From positions 1 to 11,184 of the forward strand of contig RDOB01000015.1 in assembly GCA_011364965.1 (NCBI GenBank): 11,184 nucleotides of DNA. Direction: 5' to 3'. Below the pieces are notes generated by a model, which saw nothing but the letters and a program-made list of their open reading frames with translations, did no database searches and was not told where the DNA came from. Source of the DNA: Candidatus Heimdallarchaeota archaeon (GTDB taxonomy: Archaea > Asgardarchaeota > Heimdallarchaeia > Hodarchaeales > Hodarchaeaceae). Each line of letters opens with the position of its first letter. Position 1 is the stretch's first letter. The position numbers and the translations under genes are program-made. Of this stretch, positions 2,638 to 11,167 are shown in pieces.

Positions 2638-2958
2638 CGCTCTGAAAGAAATAACGGCTTCTTAGAACCCACTTTTACTTTTTTTTCCAATTCTGATAAA
2701 GTCTCTATTGATGCCTCAGAGACCTATGTAAAATCTATTATGGAGCTACATAGTATAAGGCTATCTATAACGATTAATGAAGTATACTGAAACCCAAAGT
2801 TCTTCATTTTGGGAATATTAGACTTTACCAATGTTAGTACCAAAACGCTTCAGCAACCCCAAGAATTTGCAGAGCAGCATGGATATTCGCTTTTGACTCT
2901 CAGAGAGACGGATTTTGATTTTTTCACGGACAACGTTCTTTCGATCCTAAATGGCTGA
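2638..2958 (+). pseudogene. Probable pseudogene fragment resembling the C-terminal half (beta4-alpha3-beta5-alpha4-beta6) of a Rab/Ras-like small GTPase
   Basis: Frame +1 reads RSERNNGFLEPTFTFFSNSDKVSIDASETYVKSIMELHSIRLSITINEVY*NPKFFILGILDFTNVSTKTLQQPQEFAEQHGYSLLTLRETDFDFFTDNVLSILNG*, with one internal TGA (2788-2790). FSNSDKVSIDASETYVKSI parallels the Rab pattern FDITDRESFENVKKWLKEI, KFFILGI parallels PIALIGI of the 10246..10926 protein, and QEFAEQHGYSLL parallels its QAFTKKHNIPYY. No P-loop half is visible. Similarity judged by eye. Confidence 0.45.
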
Positions 2959-2999
2959 ATATCATCATTATTCTCCATATCGGGCTTACTACTAATATT

Positions 3000-3247
3000 T
3001 TCGCTTCAACTGTTCCTAACCGCAGGAGGGCTACTCTTGGAAAGAGTGTGGAAATTGAGTTAGATGAGAAAATCCCTCGGGAGATAGTTATAGAAGCAGT
3101 ATTCTGGATAGATTACAAAAATAGCTCTTGATCTGATGTCTGTACGTTGGTTGAGACCTAAATATGAGTTTTTATATATCTCCTCCACTTTAAAAGAGTA
3201 TAATGATTATGTTCGTTAAAGGTATCTTTCTGAAGATTTAAAGTTTA
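3000..3247 (+). repeat. Structured dispersed repeat, copy A (full core 3004-3153 plus a tail shared with copy D)
   Basis: Shares caggagggctact with B and C. Shares aaaatccct, atagaagcag and an identical 24-mer gatctgatgtctgtacgttggttg (3130-3153 = 11122-11145) with C. Shares tgattatgtt...aggta (3204-3224) with D. The right boundary is set by the start of copy B. Confidence 0.85.
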
Positions 3248-3318
3248 CTTCAGCTGTTCCTCACTACAGGAGGGCTACTATTTAGTAAATAGTGGGGAAA
3301 TTGAGTTTTTTTTTAAAA
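3248..3318 (+). repeat. Structured dispersed repeat, copy B (left half only, tandem to A)
   Basis: agctgttcctcactacaggagggctactatttag matches copy C at 32/34 positions, followed by ggaaattgag and a T-run/A-run. Similarity stops ~40 bp before the ABC operon stop codon at 3359. Confidence 0.85.
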
Positions 3319-3358
3319 GACCAGATTTCATTCCGACTGCTAGTACTTGAAATAGCTA

Positions 3359-4279
3359 TCAGCTTTTCTCAAAGGGGACTGCAAGAGAGGTTGGTGCACC
3401 AACGATGCTCTTAACTTTTTGACGCGACAGGATTATTCCCCAAATCGCAAGAAAAAGAATGGTGGAAACATGAGGAGCCATCTTTAAAACAGGTGTTGGC
3501 AGAAATTGTTGAAAATAGTATTTCATGACATCAAAAGTCCCAAATATATAAGATCCTAGAAAAGCGCCAAGCGGATTCCAGAGTGCAACCACCACCAATG
3601 CAATAACGATCCACCCTCGGCCCTGTGTCATTCCTTCAGACCAAAAATTGAGGTAACCTAAAGATAAGTAAGCTCCTCCTAATCCTGACATCATACCTCC
3701 AAAAATGACACAAGCGAACCTCAATAGGTTCACATTTACCCCTTGGTTGTATGCTGCTTCAGGGTTTTCTCCAACAGATCGAATTAAAATACCAATTCGT
3801 GTTTTATAAAGAATAAACCAGCAAATTGGCACCATAATATATGAAAAATAAACTAGTATTGGATGATCGAAGAAGATTTCTCCAATGAACGGTATATCAC
3901 TCAGAAAAGGGATATGAACATTTTCTAAGGTATCAATAGCCTTTCCAATAACTCCACGTCCAAGAATACCACTAAGTCCTGTACCAAGAATGGTCAATCC
4001 AATCCCAGAGACAACCTGAGTTCGAGTAAAAGTAATGGATATTATCGCATGAATCCCAGAGAGCACCCCTCCAAGTAACATTCCAGAAAGAACTCCAATC
4101 CATAGATTTTGAGTACTATAAGCTATTGCATAAGAAAAAGCAGCAGATGCAATTATCATCCCCTCAATTCCAAGATTTAATATCCCTGATCGCTCTGCAT
4201 AAATTTCTCCAAGCGTAGGAAGAAGGAAAAATGTTGCTGCAGCAACGATTGAGCTAAACATTAGGATATAATCTACCAT
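3359..4279 (-). CDS. ABC transporter permease, nucleoside/purine type (NupC/NupQ(YufQ)-like, BPD_transp_2 family)
   Basis: Family motifs LGEIYAERSGILNLGIEG, RSVGENPEAA and GMTQGRGWIVIALV. Multiple TM helices. AGGAGG SD at 4289-4294 (minus strand). Abuts the upstream permease stop. Confidence 0.93.
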   Translation of the reverse strand: MVDYILMFSSIVAAATFFLLPTLGEIYAERSGILNLGIEGMIIASAAFSYAIAYSTQNLWIGVLSGMLLGGVLSGIHAIISITFTRTQVVSGIGLTILGTGLSGILGRGVIGKAIDTLENVHIPFLSDIPFIGEIFFDHPILVYFSYIMVPICWFILYKTRIGILIRSVGENPEAAYNQGVNVNLLRFACVIFGGMMSGLGGAYLSLGYLNFWSEGMTQGRGWIVIALVVVALWNPLGAFLGSYIFGTFDVMKYYFQQFLPTPVLKMAPHVSTILFLAIWGIILSRQKVKSIVGAPTSLAVPFEKS

Positions 4280-5362
4280 TTAGGATTCCCTCCTCATTTT
4301 AATTGTAAAGCGAAAGAAAAATTCGCTTAACAAAACAAAGAATATTATAATCCCACTAAATAGCTGTAATACCGTGGCAGGTATCCCTGTCAATGCTAAT
4401 CCCCCTACTTTTAACGCAGCAAAGAATAATGCACTAACTATAATACCTAAGGGGTTCAAGCCTCCAAGATAGGCAACTGCAATTCCTGTGTACCCATAAC
4501 CTTGGCTTTTTACTCCCAAACGTAATGCATTTCCAGCAACTTCTCCAACTCCAGCAATAGCTGCCATACCGCCAGAAAAAATCATGGTGATTAAGATAAC
4601 TCGAAAGAAACTCATTCCTGCTATACGACCTGCAAGAGGATTTTTTCCCATTACATTAATCTCATACCCTAATTTCAACTTTGGAATTCCATCAATGTTT
4701 CTAAATAAGAAATAATAAACCAAGAGCGTGATAGCGAGAATAAGAAATATGGAAATATAAATAGGAGTGCCTGGAATTTTTGGTAATTGTGCATTTTCAG
4801 GTAATAAAGAACTATAGGTGAATCCTGTCTCAGGATCTCGCCAGAGATCACTAACTAACCATTCCATTAAATATAAAGCTGGAAATACCAAAAGAAAGCT
4901 TACAACAACATCAGCTCCTTGAAATCCTCCCTTAGCACGGAAAAGTACAACTGGAATAGCCCATATCGCTCCTAAAATAAATGCATTTACGAACATTAAC
5001 GGAATAAGAATTATCCCAGGTAAATCAGGAAATAAAAATGCTGTTCCAGTCGCAGTTAACATCCCTATTATATACTGTCCTTCTGCGCCGATATTATCCA
5101 CTCTAGCTTTGAAAGGGATAGCCAATCCTAGCCCAATTGCTAATAGGGGAATAAAACGAGCAATAGTATTAGGAATTAACAATAAATTGACTCGAATCAT
5201 ATCAATGTATGTGATTATTGGATTCACTCCATTAAGTAGGAAAATTAACCCTGCTACAACTAATCCAAACAGCAAAAATGCAATCCTGAATAAGATTGCA
5301 TTGATTCCAGTTATCGGTTCTATCCTTTTTTGGAAGAAAAGTCTATGATTCAAAATTCTCAT
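4280..5362 (-). CDS. ABC transporter permease, nucleoside/purine type (NupB/NupP(YufP)-like)
   Basis: Motifs NIGAEGQY, GYEINVMGKNPLAGRIAGM and GYGYTGIAVAYLG. Many TM helices. GGAGGT SD at 5369-5374. ATGA overlap with the ATPase stop codon. Confidence 0.93.
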   Translation of the reverse strand: MRILNHRLFFQKRIEPITGINAILFRIAFLLFGLVVAGLIFLLNGVNPIITYIDMIRVNLLLIPNTIARFIPLLAIGLGLAIPFKARVDNIGAEGQYIIGMLTATGTAFLFPDLPGIILIPLMFVNAFILGAIWAIPVVLFRAKGGFQGADVVVSFLLVFPALYLMEWLVSDLWRDPETGFTYSSLLPENAQLPKIPGTPIYISIFLILAITLLVYYFLFRNIDGIPKLKLGYEINVMGKNPLAGRIAGMSFFRVILITMIFSGGMAAIAGVGEVAGNALRLGVKSQGYGYTGIAVAYLGGLNPLGIIVSALFFAALKVGGLALTGIPATVLQLFSGIIIFFVLLSEFFFRFTIKMRRES

Positions 5363-6915
5363 ACCAATACCTCCGTTTGGTGAGCTCCTCCCATCATTAG
5401 TCCAATCATTTCTCTGGTTGCATTTTCTCTAGAAATTATACCCATAATTTTCCCTTTGAAGATTACAGCAATTTCATCGCAAAGACTCATGATTTCTGTT
5501 AAATCACTTGAAACAAGGAGGATAGCTGCGCCTTCAGCTCTTTTCCGTAAAAGCTCTTCTCTCACAAATTGAGTTGTACCTACATCTAGTCCAAATGTAG
5601 GATTTTCTGCAATTAGAATCAAATCTTTTCCTTGTTTAAGAGAGAATTCTCGCGCAACGACTACTTTTTGTCTATTTCCTCCACTTAAACTCCTAATTGG
5701 GGAGAGTGGACTGGTTGTTTTGATATTATACCGCCTAATTAACGCTTCTGTTTCTGGAATAATTCTAGAGCGATCTATAATCAAGGATTTCGAATTCTGA
5801 TATGAATTTAACATTAGGTTATCTCTTACTGAAAGGTCAAATATCAAAGCTTTTCGCCTATCCTCTGGAATGTAAGCTACTCCTAATTCCCTAACCTTTT
5901 TTATTGGTTTATTTGTGACATCTTGACCTCTTATCTTAATTCTCCCCTTCTCTAAATTCCTCCACCTAAATAATCCTTCAATTAACTCTCTTTGCCCATT
6001 CCCTGATATTCCTGCTAATCCAAGGATTTGGTTTGTTTTTAAGTGAAGAGAAATTCCATGTACAACTGCATCACCCATGTCATTATTGACTACTGCATCA
6101 TCTAATTCCACAACTATGGTACCAGTATGTACTTTATCTTGATGTAGGTCGTAAAGCACTTCTTTACCAACCATTAGAGAAGCGAGATGCATAATCGCTT
6201 CCTTTTCATTTGCATAATCCTTTCTAAGCTTTTGGGTATCTAAAACTCCCACAACCTCCCCATGTCGAAGAACAGTTATTCGATCACTAAGGTTTATGGC
6301 TTCTTCAAGATGATGTGTAATAATAATAATACTCTTCCCTTCTTCTTTAAGATTTTTTAATAAACTAAACAATCTCTCTATCTCAGGGGGAGTTAACATC
6401 GCAGTTGGTTCATCAAGAATCAAAATACTTGGATTAGTAATTAATGCCTTGAGGATTTCAACACGTTGTTTTTCTCCTCCAGATAACTTCCAAACCTTAG
6501 CTTTAGGGTTGATATCACCTAAATTAAATTTCTGTAGTGCTTTCTTAATTGCACGTTCGATTTCCGCTAATGATAGAAAAAAGCCTTCAGAAAAGCTTAA
6601 AATGTTTTCCGCAACTGTGTGACGTTCAATAAGAGATTTAGATAGATCTTGACGAGCAATTGCCAACTTATATTCTTTAATTGCTGTCAAAGGATTGTCT
6701 AAATTCACTTCAACTCCATTAATAAAAATATGGCCTGAATCAGGGGGAAAAAATAATCCATTAACTAGCGTCGACTTGCCTGCACCATTTTCTCCCAAAA
6801 TAGCATGAATTTCACCTTTATTTAAAGAAAAATTCACATGATCATTCGCTTTAACGACAATACCATCGCCATAGAAAGTTTTACAGATATCTTTCATCTC
6901 TAAGACCGAATCCAT
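5359..6915 (-). CDS. ABC transporter ATP-binding protein with two fused NBDs, CUT2 sugar/nucleoside type (NupA/NupO(YufO)-like)
   Basis: NBD1: Walker A GENGAGKS, LSGGE signature, Walker B ILDEPT, ITHH. NBD2: degenerate GISGNGQR, LSGGN, IAENPT. The start is reassigned from 6978 to ATG 6915 (MDSVLEMKDI), which has GGAG 8 nt upstream. Confidence 0.93.
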   Translation of the reverse strand: MDSVLEMKDICKTFYGDGIVVKANDHVNFSLNKGEIHAILGENGAGKSTLVNGLFFPPDSGHIFINGVEVNLDNPLTAIKEYKLAIARQDLSKSLIERHTVAENILSFSEGFFLSLAEIERAIKKALQKFNLGDINPKAKVWKLSGGEKQRVEILKALITNPSILILDEPTAMLTPPEIERLFSLLKNLKEEGKSIIIITHHLEEAINLSDRITVLRHGEVVGVLDTQKLRKDYANEKEAIMHLASLMVGKEVLYDLHQDKVHTGTIVVELDDAVVNNDMGDAVVHGISLHLKTNQILGLAGISGNGQRELIEGLFRWRNLEKGRIKIRGQDVTNKPIKKVRELGVAYIPEDRRKALIFDLSVRDNLMLNSYQNSKSLIIDRSRIIPETEALIRRYNIKTTSPLSPIRSLSGGNRQKVVVAREFSLKQGKDLILIAENPTFGLDVGTTQFVREELLRKRAEGAAILLVSSDLTEIMSLCDEIAVIFKGKIMGIISRENATREMIGLMMGGAHQTEVLV

Positions 6916-7119
6916 TCGCATAACTCCAACGTTTACTCCATGATAACGCAGTAGACCATAAAACAAGAATTCAGGCACTGATTTAGTATAGAGAAAAGAT
7001 AGTGAATTTTAATAAAAATTCATTCTTAGAAAAATCTAAACTAAAACTTGGAAATTAGAAAGACTAGCGTGTTGTATTCCTACATAATTTAACCAATATT
7101 AGTTAATAGCAGAAATTGT

Positions 7120-7144
7120 AAAAAAAAAGAAAAAAGGAAAAAAA
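7120..7144 (-). terminator. Oligo-U terminator/attenuator after the BMP gene
   Basis: Plus-strand A-tract aaaaaaaaagaaaaaaggaaaaaaa is a U-tract on the minus strand, ~10 nt after the BMP stop codon. Confidence 0.6.
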
Positions 7145-7153
7145 GTAGGGAGT

Positions 7154-8311
7154 TTATCCTGGAGTACCTATAACACCGTCCACGAACCAATCCATATACG
7201 TGAAGAGGTCAGGTATAGTGGCTTGTACTCCCGCAGCAAACATTAGTGTTCCATTCTGAGCATAAATAGGCCCTGTGAAAGGGAAGAACGTCTCAGCTGC
7301 CATTTTATCATGTTTATCCATGATGTAGTCGTAAGCATTTGTTGCACCAACAGTTATACTTTGCAATTCAGGTACGAAGAGAGGATTAATAGGAACGTCG
7401 AAATTTCCGCCTAATTCGACTGCACCTTCTTTGAGGAACCATAAATAGTCCACATCAGATAAATTAGTAGAATTATAGGTTCCATCATAAACTTTGGATA
7501 GTATCTCGTCATACATGATATCCCAATGGGCCAACTGACCTGAAATTGTGCTCTCAGGAGCATAGCTTTGCATGGGTGAGTAGTGACTAAAAGCATACAC
7601 GTCATCTTCTTCTTCCGCTGCTTGCATGACTGCAGGACTATCTTCTGTGAAAGCCAACATGTCCACACCTTTACCTATAAGGGAATTTGCAGCACTTGTG
7701 GCGGCAGTAGGATCGTACCATGAATTAATCCAAGTTACTTCAACTGTAGAATCGTTATTTGCAGCTTTCATACCAAGTGTGAATGCATTGATATGGCGGA
7801 TAACTTCTGGAATTGGGAATGCGCCAACATATCCTGCTTTCGTTGTATTAGAGAGATAGCCAGCCATCATTCCATTCAGATAGTACATCTGATACAAATC
7901 TGCGAAATAGGTTCCAACATTTGCAGCTCTTTTGTAGCCAGAACAGTGAAAGAATAGTGTATCTGGGTGTTCTGCTGCAGCTGCAATGGTGCCATCCATA
8001 AATCCAAAGGAAGTTGTGAAAATCACATTACATCCTTTGACGGTTATCAGAGTGTCAGCTGCTTCTTTAACGGATGCGATATCTTCACCGACGGTTTCTA
8101 TGTATTCTGTGCCGAGCCAAGAATACTTCTCATCTACGTAGACTCGTCCGACATCATGAGCATTAGTCCACCCATAATCACCGATCGGTCCTACATAGAT
8201 AAATCCTGCTTTAACCTTGACTGCCTCTGGACCTGTACATCCAGAAAAAGCAACCAAAAGCATTAATATACCAAATATCAAGAATATTCTAGAATAAGTT
8301 GATTTTTTCAT
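7154..8311 (-). CDS. BMP family (PnrA/BmpA/Med-like) ABC substrate-binding lipoprotein, likely nucleoside/purine binding
   Basis: Signal peptide with lipobox-like AFSG-C. Family motifs KAGFIYVGPIGDYGWTNAHD, IFTTSFGFMD and GYVGAFPIPEVIRHINAF. First gene of the ABC operon. Confidence 0.93.
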   Translation of the reverse strand: MKKSTYSRIFLIFGILMLLVAFSGCTGPEAVKVKAGFIYVGPIGDYGWTNAHDVGRVYVDEKYSWLGTEYIETVGEDIASVKEAADTLITVKGCNVIFTTSFGFMDGTIAAAAEHPDTLFFHCSGYKRAANVGTYFADLYQMYYLNGMMAGYLSNTTKAGYVGAFPIPEVIRHINAFTLGMKAANNDSTVEVTWINSWYDPTAATSAANSLIGKGVDMLAFTEDSPAVMQAAEEEDDVYAFSHYSPMQSYAPESTISGQLAHWDIMYDEILSKVYDGTYNSTNLSDVDYLWFLKEGAVELGGNFDVPINPLFVPELQSITVGATNAYDYIMDKHDKMAAETFFPFTGPIYAQNGTLMFAAGVQATIPDLFTYMDWFVDGVIGTPG

Positions 8312-8368: not shown

Positions 8369-8481
8369 CATGATAGATTTGGCGCTTGCTCTGCTGTCTG
8401 TACCTTGGTTGGACAATTATTTTAGTGATTTTGCCTTTTCTAGACTGAGATTCTTTCCCTGATTATGTTATTTACTAGGTA
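8369..8481 (+). repeat. Structured dispersed repeat, copy D (right half only)
   Basis: ttggcgcttgctctgctgtctgtaccttggttgg (8379-8412) matches C 11113-11146 at 30/34 positions. Also catgatag (8369-8376 = 11092-11099), gtgattttg (8425-8433 = 11159-11167) and tgattatgtt (8460-8469 = A 3204-3213). Confidence 0.8.
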
Positions 8482-8576: not shown

Positions 8577-9278
8577 GTGGTTGAAATGGACGCAAAGAAG
8601 CAAAAGGAACCATCAGAGAGTCCGAAACCTCAGCGTAAAATCCTTCTGATGGCTTTAAGTGCTTCAGGACGCACGGGAATTGCGAAGAAATTTATCGATG
8701 AAACCTGGCCGCAGGATGACAAAGCATACTACAAACCAACTATTGATTACGAACGCCACACACGTGTGATATGTGGGACTGAATTCGTAGTGTTTGATTG
8801 CGGGGGACAAACCGCCTTTATGGACCAATTTACTGGCAAGTTAGCTGAATTTATGTTCTCAAAAGTAGCAAGTTTAGTGTTCTGTGTAAATGCGTCTGCG
8901 AATGGTATTGGCCAGATCTCCCGAGCAAAATATTATTTTGACCTGGCGTTACACCGACTTGAGACTTACAGTCCCTCCGCAATGGTCTTCCTGATCCTCA
9001 CGAAAATGGATCTAGTTCCAGAATCCCTTGAAGAAGAAGTAGTGGAAGCCATCATCACCTATATACTCCATCAAGTACCGAAAAAAGTCATAATTTTTCA
9101 CACCTCGATTTTTGATTATACCGCCACGCAAGCGGTAGAATCCATTATTCGGGCAAACCTCCAGGTTTTTGATCCGGTTATCAGTCAACTCAACGGGAAA
9201 CGTTTCAAGACTCTCGAAGATCCGTTTCATACGCAAGCTATTCAGGAAGCACTCCGAATCCTCAAGTCCACGGATTAA
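8577..9278 (+). CDS. Gtr1/RagA-family small GTPase (G-domain only) with a non-canonical P-loop
   Basis: RKILLMALSASGRT (G1), PTIDYE (G2), FDCGGQ (G3), TKMD (G4) and TSIFD (G5) parallel Gtr1/RagA motifs MGxSGSGKS, ATIDVE, WDCGGQ, HKMD and TSIWD. No C-terminal roadblock domain. The start may be ATG 8586 rather than GTG 8577. Confidence 0.85.
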   Translation: MVEMDAKKQKEPSESPKPQRKILLMALSASGRTGIAKKFIDETWPQDDKAYYKPTIDYERHTRVICGTEFVVFDCGGQTAFMDQFTGKLAEFMFSKVASLVFCVNASANGIGQISRAKYYFDLALHRLETYSPSAMVFLILTKMDLVPESLEEEVVEAIITYILHQVPKKVIIFHTSIFDYTATQAVESIIRANLQVFDPVISQLNGKRFKTLEDPFHTQAIQEALRILKSTD

Positions 9279-9503
9279 AAGGGATTTTTGGAATCCTAGC
9301 GTATTCTAAAGCTCCTACTTTTTTAGTAATAATCTGGACTGCTCATTTGCTCAGGATTTATTCTATAAGTGCGTTAATTGTGGTAAGATGTAGCTTGGAT
9401 TAACTGACGACTGGACTTAGGCTAATCCCTAAGACATGAAAAACTCTATAAACATGCTTTTCTTTTTTTTGCATTAAATGTACTAACAGGATGATTAATT
9501 AAG

Positions 9504-10211
9504 GTGAAGCTGCAATCCGCACTAACAACAATTGGCTTTTTAGCCTTATTCATATCTCCTATTTTTTCAGCCATGGGAATCCAGACAGAAGTCGCTTATA
9601 GAGAGTTCCCTGTCGGAAATGCATATTCGTGGCAATTTCTGACAGTTTTAAATGATTCCCAACCATGTTATACTACTTGGCGTAGTGGATTAGATAACTT
9701 GACACAAAATGATAAAATATCTCTGAAAATTCTCTTTTCCACCAACTCTTCCCTTAGATATGAAATTTCTGCCAATAGTCAATCATTTGAGGAAGGATTT
9801 GTGTTAAATTCCTTCTTACAACAACTAGGAGAAGGAAATTCATATATACACCTCGGGTACTATTTTTTCCTTCCAACAGGAGAGGAATTCTGGAGCGAAC
9901 TGGCATTGCACATTAGTTCTACTATCCCAGCCGCTGATGTCCACAATAGGGAATCCATTTTTTCATTTAATGCTTCAACAATCTTTCATCAAACATATTC
10001 TTGGGAGTTTGATAAAGCAACTGGTCTTTTGAGATCATTTAGGCAAATTGTGCGGGATCCCAACTTGAATTATGGACCACGTACCCCAGATGAATTGTAT
10101 TTACTTCGGACGGATTTGAAGTCGAAGTTACCCGAACTCACTCATATAACTGTTGGAATATTGATTCTCGGAGGCTTCATTCTGTTACTTGTGCTTAGAA
10201 AGAGACAATAA
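9504..10211 (+). CDS. Hypothetical type-I membrane/cell-surface protein
   Basis: N-terminal signal-like hydrophobic stretch, beta-rich ectodomain with sequons (NDS, NLT, NSS, NAS) and a WEFDKATGLL motif, C-terminal TM helix ITVGILILGGFILLLVL followed by RKRQ. Confidence 0.75.
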   Translation: MKLQSALTTIGFLALFISPIFSAMGIQTEVAYREFPVGNAYSWQFLTVLNDSQPCYTTWRSGLDNLTQNDKISLKILFSTNSSLRYEISANSQSFEEGFVLNSFLQQLGEGNSYIHLGYYFFLPTGEEFWSELALHISSTIPAADVHNRESIFSFNASTIFHQTYSWEFDKATGLLRSFRQIVRDPNLNYGPRTPDELYLLRTDLKSKLPELTHITVGILILGGFILLLVLRKRQ

Positions 10212-10245
10212 GCTATTATTTGAGTTATGCACTTAGACGACAAAA

Positions 10246-10926
10246 TTATGATTCTTGATCCATGGAAGCTCCTTGAGCTGTTAAAGCTTTCTTCGCTAGT
10301 TCGGTGAGGATATATTCCACCTGGGATTTTTTATCTGTGAGAGTGATTTCGTAATATGGTATATTATGCTTCTTTGTAAATGCTTGCACATCCGCTATAT
10401 CGACGGGAATTAATTCAATTGCTTTTGCTTTTGGATGTTTTTTACCTTGTTTTTTACCTAATATCCGCTGAATTTGTCTAATAAATTTCCTTACATACCC
10501 TATTTCGGTTATTCTAGGCTCTTTAGTCCTAATTTCTTCAGTTCTAATTTCTTCAGTTCTAGGTTCTTCAATGCCTATCAGAGCAATTGGAATAGATGCG
10601 TCTGGGATATGTTTTCGGAATTCCGCTAACCAACTTAAAGCAAAAGTTTTCTTTTCATTTAGAGCGAATATTATTAAACAAGCCGATGCTCCTCTGTAAT
10701 AGCTAGGCCTGAGTTTACCAAAAAATTCCTGTCCTGCAGTATCCACAAGAATGAGCTTCACTCGATTATTCCCGATCTGAATTTTTTTAGTTGTGATATC
10801 CACTCCCAAAGTTGGCATATAATTGGTCGTAAATTTACCTTCTGCATATACCCTGACTAGTTGTGTTTTATATTTTGAGGCTCCTATTATACAGATCTTC
10901 AGTAAATACTCGTTTTCCCCACTCAT
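10246..10926 (-). CDS. Rab-like small GTPase-fold protein with degenerate G1/G4/G5 (probable pseudoGTPase)
   Basis: YLLKICIIG start, YMPTLGVDI (G2/RabF1), KLILVDTAGQE (G3), YYRGA (RabF4). G1 is GASKYKT, the G4 position reads GIEE and the G5 position reads EITL. No C-terminal cysteines. Confidence 0.85.
   Translation of the reverse strand: MSGENEYLLKICIIGASKYKTQLVRVYAEGKFTTNYMPTLGVDITTKKIQIGNNRVKLILVDTAGQEFFGKLRPSYYRGASACLIIFALNEKKTFALSWLAEFRKHIPDASIPIALIGIEEPRTEEIRTEEIRTKEPRITEIGYVRKFIRQIQRILGKKQGKKHPKAKAIELIPVDIADVQAFTKKHNIPYYEITLTDKKSQVEYILTELAKKALTAQGASMDQES
10511..10570 (-). repeat. Four imperfect 15-bp in-frame tandem repeats inside the Rab-like gene (EEPRT-EEIRT-EEIRT-KEPRI)
   Basis: Plus-strand units attctaggctcttta / gtcctaatttcttca / gttctaatttcttca / gttctaggttcttca. 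Confidence 0.9.
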
Positions 10927-10990
10927 CGGATTTCTCGTTTTTTAAAGCAGTGCTGGTTCATAAATCTTCCTAATCATAGTAGTCTTCTTA

Positions 10991-11167
10991 TTCGTTAGCT
11001 GTCCCTCACTGCAGGAGGGCTACTATTTAGCACCTAGTATGGATATTGAGATTTTTTAAAAAAATCCCTAGTGAGACAGCGATAGAAGCAGCATGATAGG
11101 TATTCATACAACTTGGCGCTGGATCTGATGTCTGTACGTTGGTTGGGAAGTATTTAGCGTGATTTTG
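10991..11167 (+). repeat. Structured dispersed repeat, copy C (full core, may continue beyond the window end)
   Basis: Colinear with copy A over ~150 bp. Left half matches B (32/34) and right half matches D (30/34). Begins ~65 bp upstream of the Rab-like start codon. Confidence 0.85.

Follow-up and report, generated by a model that had tools for sequence, protein, structure and literature searches.

The window considered here, that is, the whole stretch of 11,184 nt that was analysed, belongs to a Hodarchaeales-type Asgard archaeon and contains a repeat whose copies differ at positions that could still be paired. Which kind of element this repeat is, and whether its pairing has any role, are the questions raised by the locus. 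According to the original prediction, it would be either a novel structured non-coding RNA (ncRNA), folded on the plus strand through an inner hairpin, a long-range stem and a third hairpin, or a single-stranded recombination substrate. The results presented below led to another answer: the repeat is the 3' end of the 23S rRNA gene together with its 3' trailer, present as an orphan, and it is not a novel ncRNA.

Copies of the repeat and their genomic array

All the motifs quoted in the original prediction were present in the window where it had placed them, and a repeat unit of about 150 nt was supported both by a repeat finder and by a three-way alignment. The window holds four copies, namely A, the partial copy B, a 3' piece at 8373-8433 that was not among the three copies (A, B and C) initially described, and C. 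The features of the region, including the inner hairpin (H1), a second hairpin (H2) and a conserved 24-mer, are the following:

2680..3006, plus strand: non-coding gene remnant; its homologue is the 3' end of the gene preceding another copy (contig C12, around 496 kb)
3004..3156, plus strand: copy A, a full orphan tail, 115 bits with the sequence-only model; the trailer follows the 23S-derived part
3032..3048, plus strand: hairpin H1 of copy A, with a 7-bp stem and a 3-nt loop (−5.1 kcal/mol, z −3.45)
3130..3153, plus strand: 24-mer of copy A, which is the distal 3' strand of the pre-rRNA processing stem; in G001, G025 and G008 its reverse complement is found upstream of rRNA genes
3248..3318, plus strand: copy B, 5' half only, with H1 at 3276-3294 and H2 at 3305-3321
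3359..8311, minus strand: cargo block between copies, consisting of an ABC transporter operon of four genes (a binding protein of the Bmp/PnrA type, an ATPase and two permeases)
8373..8433, plus strand: partial copy, with the distal stem strand and about 20 nt past it, and nothing else
8577..10926, mixed strands: cargo block between copies, with a Gtr1/RagA-like GTPase, a protein without Pfam family and a Ras/Roc-like GTPase (the latter on the minus strand)
10993..11150, plus strand: copy C, a full orphan tail, with H1 at 11021-11039, H2 at 11050-11066 and the 24-mer at 11122-11145

The homology of copy B ends at the 3' arm of H2, and the H1 of copy C (11021-11039) is partly decayed. The similarity between regions bearing a copy is not restricted to the tails. 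The stretch located upstream of copy A and running into it aligned with C12 near 496 kb over 490 nt, with 79% identity, and, as the homologous sequence there is the end of the gene that precedes another copy, a gene remnant is assigned to this part of the window. Likewise, at 10881-10992 the homology beyond the tail reaches the start of the neighbouring gene, the similar region being on C12 near 501 kb (265 nt, 86% identity). Since the homology runs past the tails into the ends and starts of neighbouring genes, these results indicate that genes and tails were duplicated together.

The assembly to which the window belongs (G000; 2.97 Mb, 16 contigs, 87% complete, the window being on contig C8) yielded 26 matches in a whole-assembly nhmmer profile search. 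Twenty-five of them were co-oriented, those at C12:440877-525037 being all on the minus strand and those on the window contig all on the plus strand. The array region of about 95 kb is composed of C12 from 440 to 525 kb, this contig ending at 525507, and of the window contig. Its copies are intergenic and separate blocks of 1-5 genes with mixed orientation, and the partial ones break at varied places (model positions 64, 80, 84, 101 and 129). The approximately 25 co-oriented orphans divide an accessory island into these small blocks. Copies would be kept alike by descent and, presumably, by homologous exchange between them, which is supported by the joint duplication of gene ends and tails and by the varied break points of the partial copies. 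A MITE or transposon was ruled out, as the copies are found in one region, all co-oriented, and without terminal inverted repeats.

Regarding the cargo, the Gtr1/RagA-like GTPase (8577-9278) and the Ras/Roc-like small GTPase (10246-10926) are carried between orphan tails and, as a consequence, these eukaryote-like GTPase genes belong to the variable island. No Pfam family matches the 235-aa protein encoded at 9504-10211, and a search of 21 congeners at E ≤ 1e-10 did not find it; a paralogue that is 86% identical is located outside the array (C2:40095-40790) and bears one in-frame TAG. Finally, a large ORF at 2-2530, open at the contig start, has bacterial TSP3 (thrombospondin type 3) repeats and also repeated Asp-rich units (repeat families D4, D5 and D7).

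A displaced 23S rRNA end and its external pairing partners

The identity of the repeat was established from its connection with rRNA genes. The Rfam archaeal LSU model RF02540 matched C12:515019-515329 (model positions 2721-2973 of 2987, 222 bits), and this match continues unbroken into one copy of the repeat. Because both are contiguous, the first 35-40 nt of the repeat correspond to the 3' end of the 23S rRNA gene; in copy A, the 23S-derived portion is about 30 nt long (3007-3033). In addition, the 300 nt upstream of the copy linked to the LSU match were 75-82% identical to congener 23S fragments by BLAST. A cmscan of this locus gave no match, although the whole-genome family search scored the fragment at 222 bits, and its 23S identity is taken from that family search together with BLAST and not from cmscan. 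Two congeners provided genuine trailers for comparison. In G005 (L027), the trailer behind a contiguous 23S gene (from model position 1111) is collinear with the repeat as far as and including the 24-mer, and the trailer of the 23S gene of G008 that reaches the end of its contig C8 is likewise collinear with the repeat.

The copies of the window come after unrelated genes and are not attached to a full-length 23S gene and, for this reason, all the analysed copies of this genome are considered orphans. The whole-genome Rfam family search identified no 23S piece in the assembly other than the 310-nt 3' fragment, and the search of the assembly for SSU rRNA gave no match. The absence of a 16S gene and of any further 23S piece indicates that the true rRNA locus of this genome is not assembled. 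The Rfam scan of the window itself gave no match at E ≤ 1. The collinearity of the element with the 23S 3' end and its trailer contradicts the proposal of a novel structured ncRNA. Two other aspects of that proposal were nevertheless correct: the plus strand is the sense strand, as it corresponds to the rRNA sense, and the origin is a structured RNA, since the element derives from pre-rRNA.

Spare 23S 3' fragments of about 310 nt recur in the arrays of congeners, all of them starting at model position 2721 and each continuing into a tail. They were found, besides C12:515019-515329 of G000, on G001 C52, G001 C45, G002 C65 (two), G003 C184, G008 C8 (two) and G012 C390. The 23S gene on contig C8 of G008 has an insertion of about 320 nt (L074:510-829, minus strand) near the equivalent of E. 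coli position ~2585, with normal 23S sequence at both sides. It folds strongly (−98.7 kcal/mol), has no homologue in the genome of the window and may be an rRNA intron or intervening sequence. A link between this insertion and the common 5' limit of the 310-nt fragments was considered and rejected, as they lie about 35-40 nt apart and the insertion has no homologue here.

In archaea, the pre-rRNA is processed through a leader-trailer helix formed around 16S and 23S, which is cut by the tRNA-splicing endonuclease at a bulge-helix-bulge (PMC7038931, PMC10351888, PMC8339473). The repeat bears the 3' strand of such a helix, its proximal blocks pairing with the spacer and its 24-mer with the upstream block. 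The difference is that the copies studied here occur without the leader and the 23S body.

The original prediction described the 24-mer, its most conserved block, as having no obvious partner and as a possible guide. A partner does exist, outside the repeat. In G001 and G025, the reverse complement of the 24-mer was located before the 23S gene, at a distance of about 85 nt; in G008, which has a 16S-spacer-23S operon, it was located about 190 nt before the 16S gene. In this last genome, the distal partner is upstream of 16S and the helix would enclose the whole operon. The genuine trailer of G008 pairs with its own leader block at 19 of 20 positions, two of which are wobbles. The 24-mer is therefore one strand of the rRNA processing stem, given its complement in rRNA leaders, and not a guide; a C/D-box sRNA, also considered for it, was abandoned on finding this complement. 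Leader blocks are followed directly by 23S in G001 and G025, and the 16S gene and the spacer intervene in G008. One and the same GC-rich, structured-looking stretch of about 250 nt precedes the block that pairs with the 24-mer in both G001 and G008 (L033:2090-2500, minus strand, in G001 C38; L043:1530-1750, minus strand, in G008 C9).

The proximal trailer blocks of G008 pair with the last 60 nt, approximately, of the spacer before the 23S gene. Cofolding of this spacer with the genuine trailer gave −59.0 kcal/mol, compared with −49.0 ± 4.1 kcal/mol for shuffled trailers (z −2.45), and a helix of about 30 bp; these leader and spacer pairings were demonstrated in congeners, the leader of the window genome being outside the assembly. 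The G008 duplex showed internal loops beside a 4-bp helix, and no canonical 3-4-3 bulge-helix-bulge motif was seen in it.

In the explanation favoured here, each copy is an orphan duplicate of the final 35-40 nt of the 23S rRNA gene and of the complete 3' trailer, through the distal strand of the processing stem. The first block of the repeat has its partners within the 23S body and at the 23S 5' end, the proximal trailer blocks have theirs in the spacer immediately preceding 23S, and the 24-mer pairs with the block upstream of the rRNA gene or genes. As all these partners are external to the repeat, its conserved blocks seem to have none, and the orphan copies, deprived of them, are therefore largely unstructured. 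We consider it very probable that the repeat is an orphan 23S 3' end plus trailer, that its partners are external and that the element does not fold by itself; this judgement is a joint one on these three points and does not cover the role of the hairpins. The value of this result is mainly corrective, as what looked like a novel structured RNA is a fragment of pre-rRNA out of its place, whose conserved blocks are explained by partners located elsewhere.

Folding of the element and of its hairpins

The original prediction had named folding no better than dinucleotide-shuffled controls among the outcomes that would speak against it, and this is what was found for the element on either strand, both as RNA and as DNA. 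The four copies folded as RNA in the sense orientation gave z values of +1.18, +0.05, +1.91 and +2.62. Thirty copies from nine genomes gave an average z of +0.47 for the plus strand and +0.27 for the minus strand, and none of the 30 was below −2. With the sequence-only model R1, much more diverged copies were found in six congeners, scoring 30-43 bits compared with 82-117 bits for full-length copies of G000. A metagenome pattern scan gave six loci, mostly matching MAGs already in the sample, and the covariation sample was little enlarged by it. RNAalifold predicted −0.41 kcal/mol for the 16 copies of the window genome and 0 for 29 copies from seven genomes. When full copies were folded as DNA, z was +1.74 for A and −1.29 for C. 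Over the sub-range originally proposed, copy C alone folded as DNA better than its shuffles (z −2.25 and −2.36 on the two strands), and A did not.

The full proposed structure was 72% paired in the 16 copies of the genome, and slid controls gave 44-47%. Its covariation was 0.117 compared with 0.116 for the shuffles, 241 of 500 of which were as high. Similar values were obtained for the long-range stem in 30 copies: 71% of it was paired, its covariation was 0.171 compared with 0.165 for the shuffles, 139 of 500 of which reached the observed value, and two of its pairs were unpaired in 26-27 of the 30 copies. As a result, only part of what had been proposed for this stem was retained, namely a complementarity above that of slid controls (71-72% vs. 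35-49% overall), whereas covariation above shuffles was not observed. Its 3' arm falls within a trailer block that pairs with the leader and its 5' arm within the mature 23S rRNA, where, judging by the E. coli secondary structure, it presumably pairs with an upstream 23S segment. The long-range complementarity might correspond to a true alternative folding of the pre-rRNA. With respect to the third hairpin, no consensus pairing was predicted, and its stretch consists of at least three sequence types that cannot be aligned with each other.

The proposal that each copy is transcribed from the plus strand as a separate ncRNA of about 150 nt that folds by itself, with the long-range stem, the three hairpins and the 24-mer as a guide or protein-binding site, is favoured by the covariation of the inner hairpin (see below), by the 71% pairing of the long-range stem and by the behaviour of copy C over the range initially proposed. 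However, copy C folds equally well on the minus strand, the long-range stem does not covary and both its arms have better-supported partners elsewhere. The complement of the 24-mer in the rRNA leader, the collinearity with the 23S end and trailer, the mean z of +0.47 without any of 30 copies below −2 and the lack of an Rfam match in the window point in the same direction, and make such an RNA highly improbable.

The two small hairpins behaved differently from the rest of the proposed structure. H1 is placed exactly at the junction between 23S and the trailer, and H2 about 25 nt further on. The inner hairpin claimed in the original prediction, H1, was confirmed as a real one that covaries. In 29 copies from seven genomes, 81.5% of its cells were paired, compared with 70% expected from composition, and 22 cells presented double changes when 8.9 were expected. 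Its covariation was 0.235, slid controls giving 0.05-0.10 and shuffles 0.095 ± 0.020, with none of the 500 shuffles as high; as shuffles ignore the relatedness of the copies, significance is overstated and this result is to be read as strong support and not as a probability. One H1 pair was found with all four Watson-Crick types (CG 11, AU 4, GC 2 and UA 2), and another one as UA 12, AU 7 and CG 3. H2, seen in more than 20 copies, consists of a T-run and then an A-run; the bases that interrupt these runs show compensating changes, and the mean z of the hairpin versus shuffles was −2.3; the register of this hairpin relative to its flanks drifts between copies, and it was not scored by alignment column. 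The stems are weak, with energies from 0 to −5.7 kcal/mol for H1 and from 0 to −5.9 kcal/mol for H2.

Wobbles possible only on the plus strand, which had been proposed as a sign of RNA folding, were not a property of the covarying hairpins. The inner pairs of H1 showed 6 G.T and 9 A.C among 164 cells, and the slight plus-strand advantage of this hairpin is due to its closing T.G pair alone, which is made by the conserved flanks. The mean energy of H2 was −2.05 kcal/mol on the plus strand and −2.36 kcal/mol on the minus strand, so that both strands can be taken as equal.

The genuine trailers of G005 and G008 have neither H1 nor H2. They present 4 nt at the H1 position, which is also what H1 replaces in copy A, and 5-6 nt that pair with the leader at the H2 position. 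Most orphans of seven genomes bear one or both hairpins, and many full copies are without one or both. On present evidence, which comprises two genuine trailers, H1 and H2 are additions specific to orphans that replace bases needed by the genuine trailer. They are the sole self-contained structures of the element, and consist of short, optional, A/T-rich palindromes.

Possible roles of the hairpins and the array

T-runs on both strands are found in most H2 copies and in some H1 copies of congeners. Such runs would be intolerable in a genuine trailer, where they would precede its stem strand. Our leading guess, which we hold tentatively and at somewhat less than an even chance, is that H1 and H2 may weakly stop transcription in both directions, or insulate cassettes from each other. 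A two-way action is favoured because T-runs appear on both strands and the neighbouring genes point both ways. Against a terminator, several hairpins of G000 have no run of five or more T, the stems amount to only −0.1 to −6 kcal/mol and the flanking genes are in mixed orientation.

The same low stability agrees with a second explanation, in which the hairpins would be neutral by-products without function in RNA or recombination, that is, short A/T-rich palindromes whose origin and symmetry would be due to template switching or to hairpin-templated repair (quasi-palindrome correction). In its favour, RNAalifold predicts nothing, there is no wobble bias to either strand, the register of H2 drifts between copies, and decay is visible in several copies, such as copy C and the copies near 486 kb and 463 kb. 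However, the same two insertion points are used across seven genomes, H1 is paired in 81.5% of cells when composition would give 70%, its covariation is above that of every shuffle, and the hairpins persist in species whose tails have diverged to 30-43 bits. A neutral origin is rather unlikely.

A third possibility is that the hairpins are structure-specific recombination signals, extruded from single-stranded or cruciform DNA, and that the orphan tails are joints of an integrase-less cassette system, attC-like in function. Co-oriented copies bound blocks of genes, the gene end and the tail duplicate as one unit, pairing is kept while sequence changes, and it is strand-symmetric, as expected of a signal at DNA level. 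In addition, several partial copies break at or near a hairpin, copy B ending at H2 and several copies of congeners starting at H1. However, the other partial copies break at the unrelated positions mentioned above, one or both hairpins are missing from many full copies, and about 150 nt of homology suffices for ordinary homologous recombination. Matches to the Phage_integrase family (PF00589) in this 87% complete assembly were found only on C9 (581 kb) and C1 (0.5 kb), none of them in or beside the array; the one on C1 (548-1051) is about 0.5 kb from the end of the contig. The absence of attC core motifs and of a site-wide palindrome also goes against this explanation, which we regard as unlikely.

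The comparison with attC was extended to the integrons and to the integrase-less attC clusters, including archaeal integrons (bioRxiv 10.1101/2022.02.06.479319). As in these systems, small blocks of accessory genes are delimited by repeats of about 150 nt in a common orientation, and the pairing of short hairpins outlasts their sequence. The repeat differs from them by having neither R'/R'' core sites, a site-wide palindrome nor an integron integrase, and by being a piece of an rRNA gene and its spacer. No 7-mer fitting either the R'' or the R' consensus was identified at either end of copies A and C. An integron attC was rejected on these grounds, the likeness being in layout only, and the same lack of core sites, of a site-wide palindrome and of a nearby integrase leaves the attC-like single-stranded substrate of the original prediction unsupported.

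Another parallel can be drawn with tRNA and tmRNA genes. Integrative elements accrete in tandem at the 3' ends of these genes. In both cases successive joints of insertion, all in one orientation, are marked by a duplicate of the 3' end of a stable-RNA gene. Unlike them, the unit described here comprises the 23S end and the entire trailer, has no integrase and delimits blocks of 1-5 genes.

A limited search of the literature yielded no description of arrays of rRNA-tail cassettes in Asgard archaea. The interest of the present one comes from its context, since about 25 spare rRNA tails, all in the same direction, partition a species-specific accessory island of a Hodarchaeales-type Asgard archaeon with no integrase in sight, and these tails, unlike the two genuine trailers, bear two small hairpins whose pairing is kept across species. 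It is improbable, although conceivable from these data, that the covarying, orphan-specific hairpins are working signals, either recombination sites or two-way insulators, that make former rRNA trailers the joints of an integrase-less capture and shuffling of cassettes. If this were true, they would give a handle on how genes are stacked and shuffled in this lineage, and would represent a functional analogue of attC derived from rRNA.
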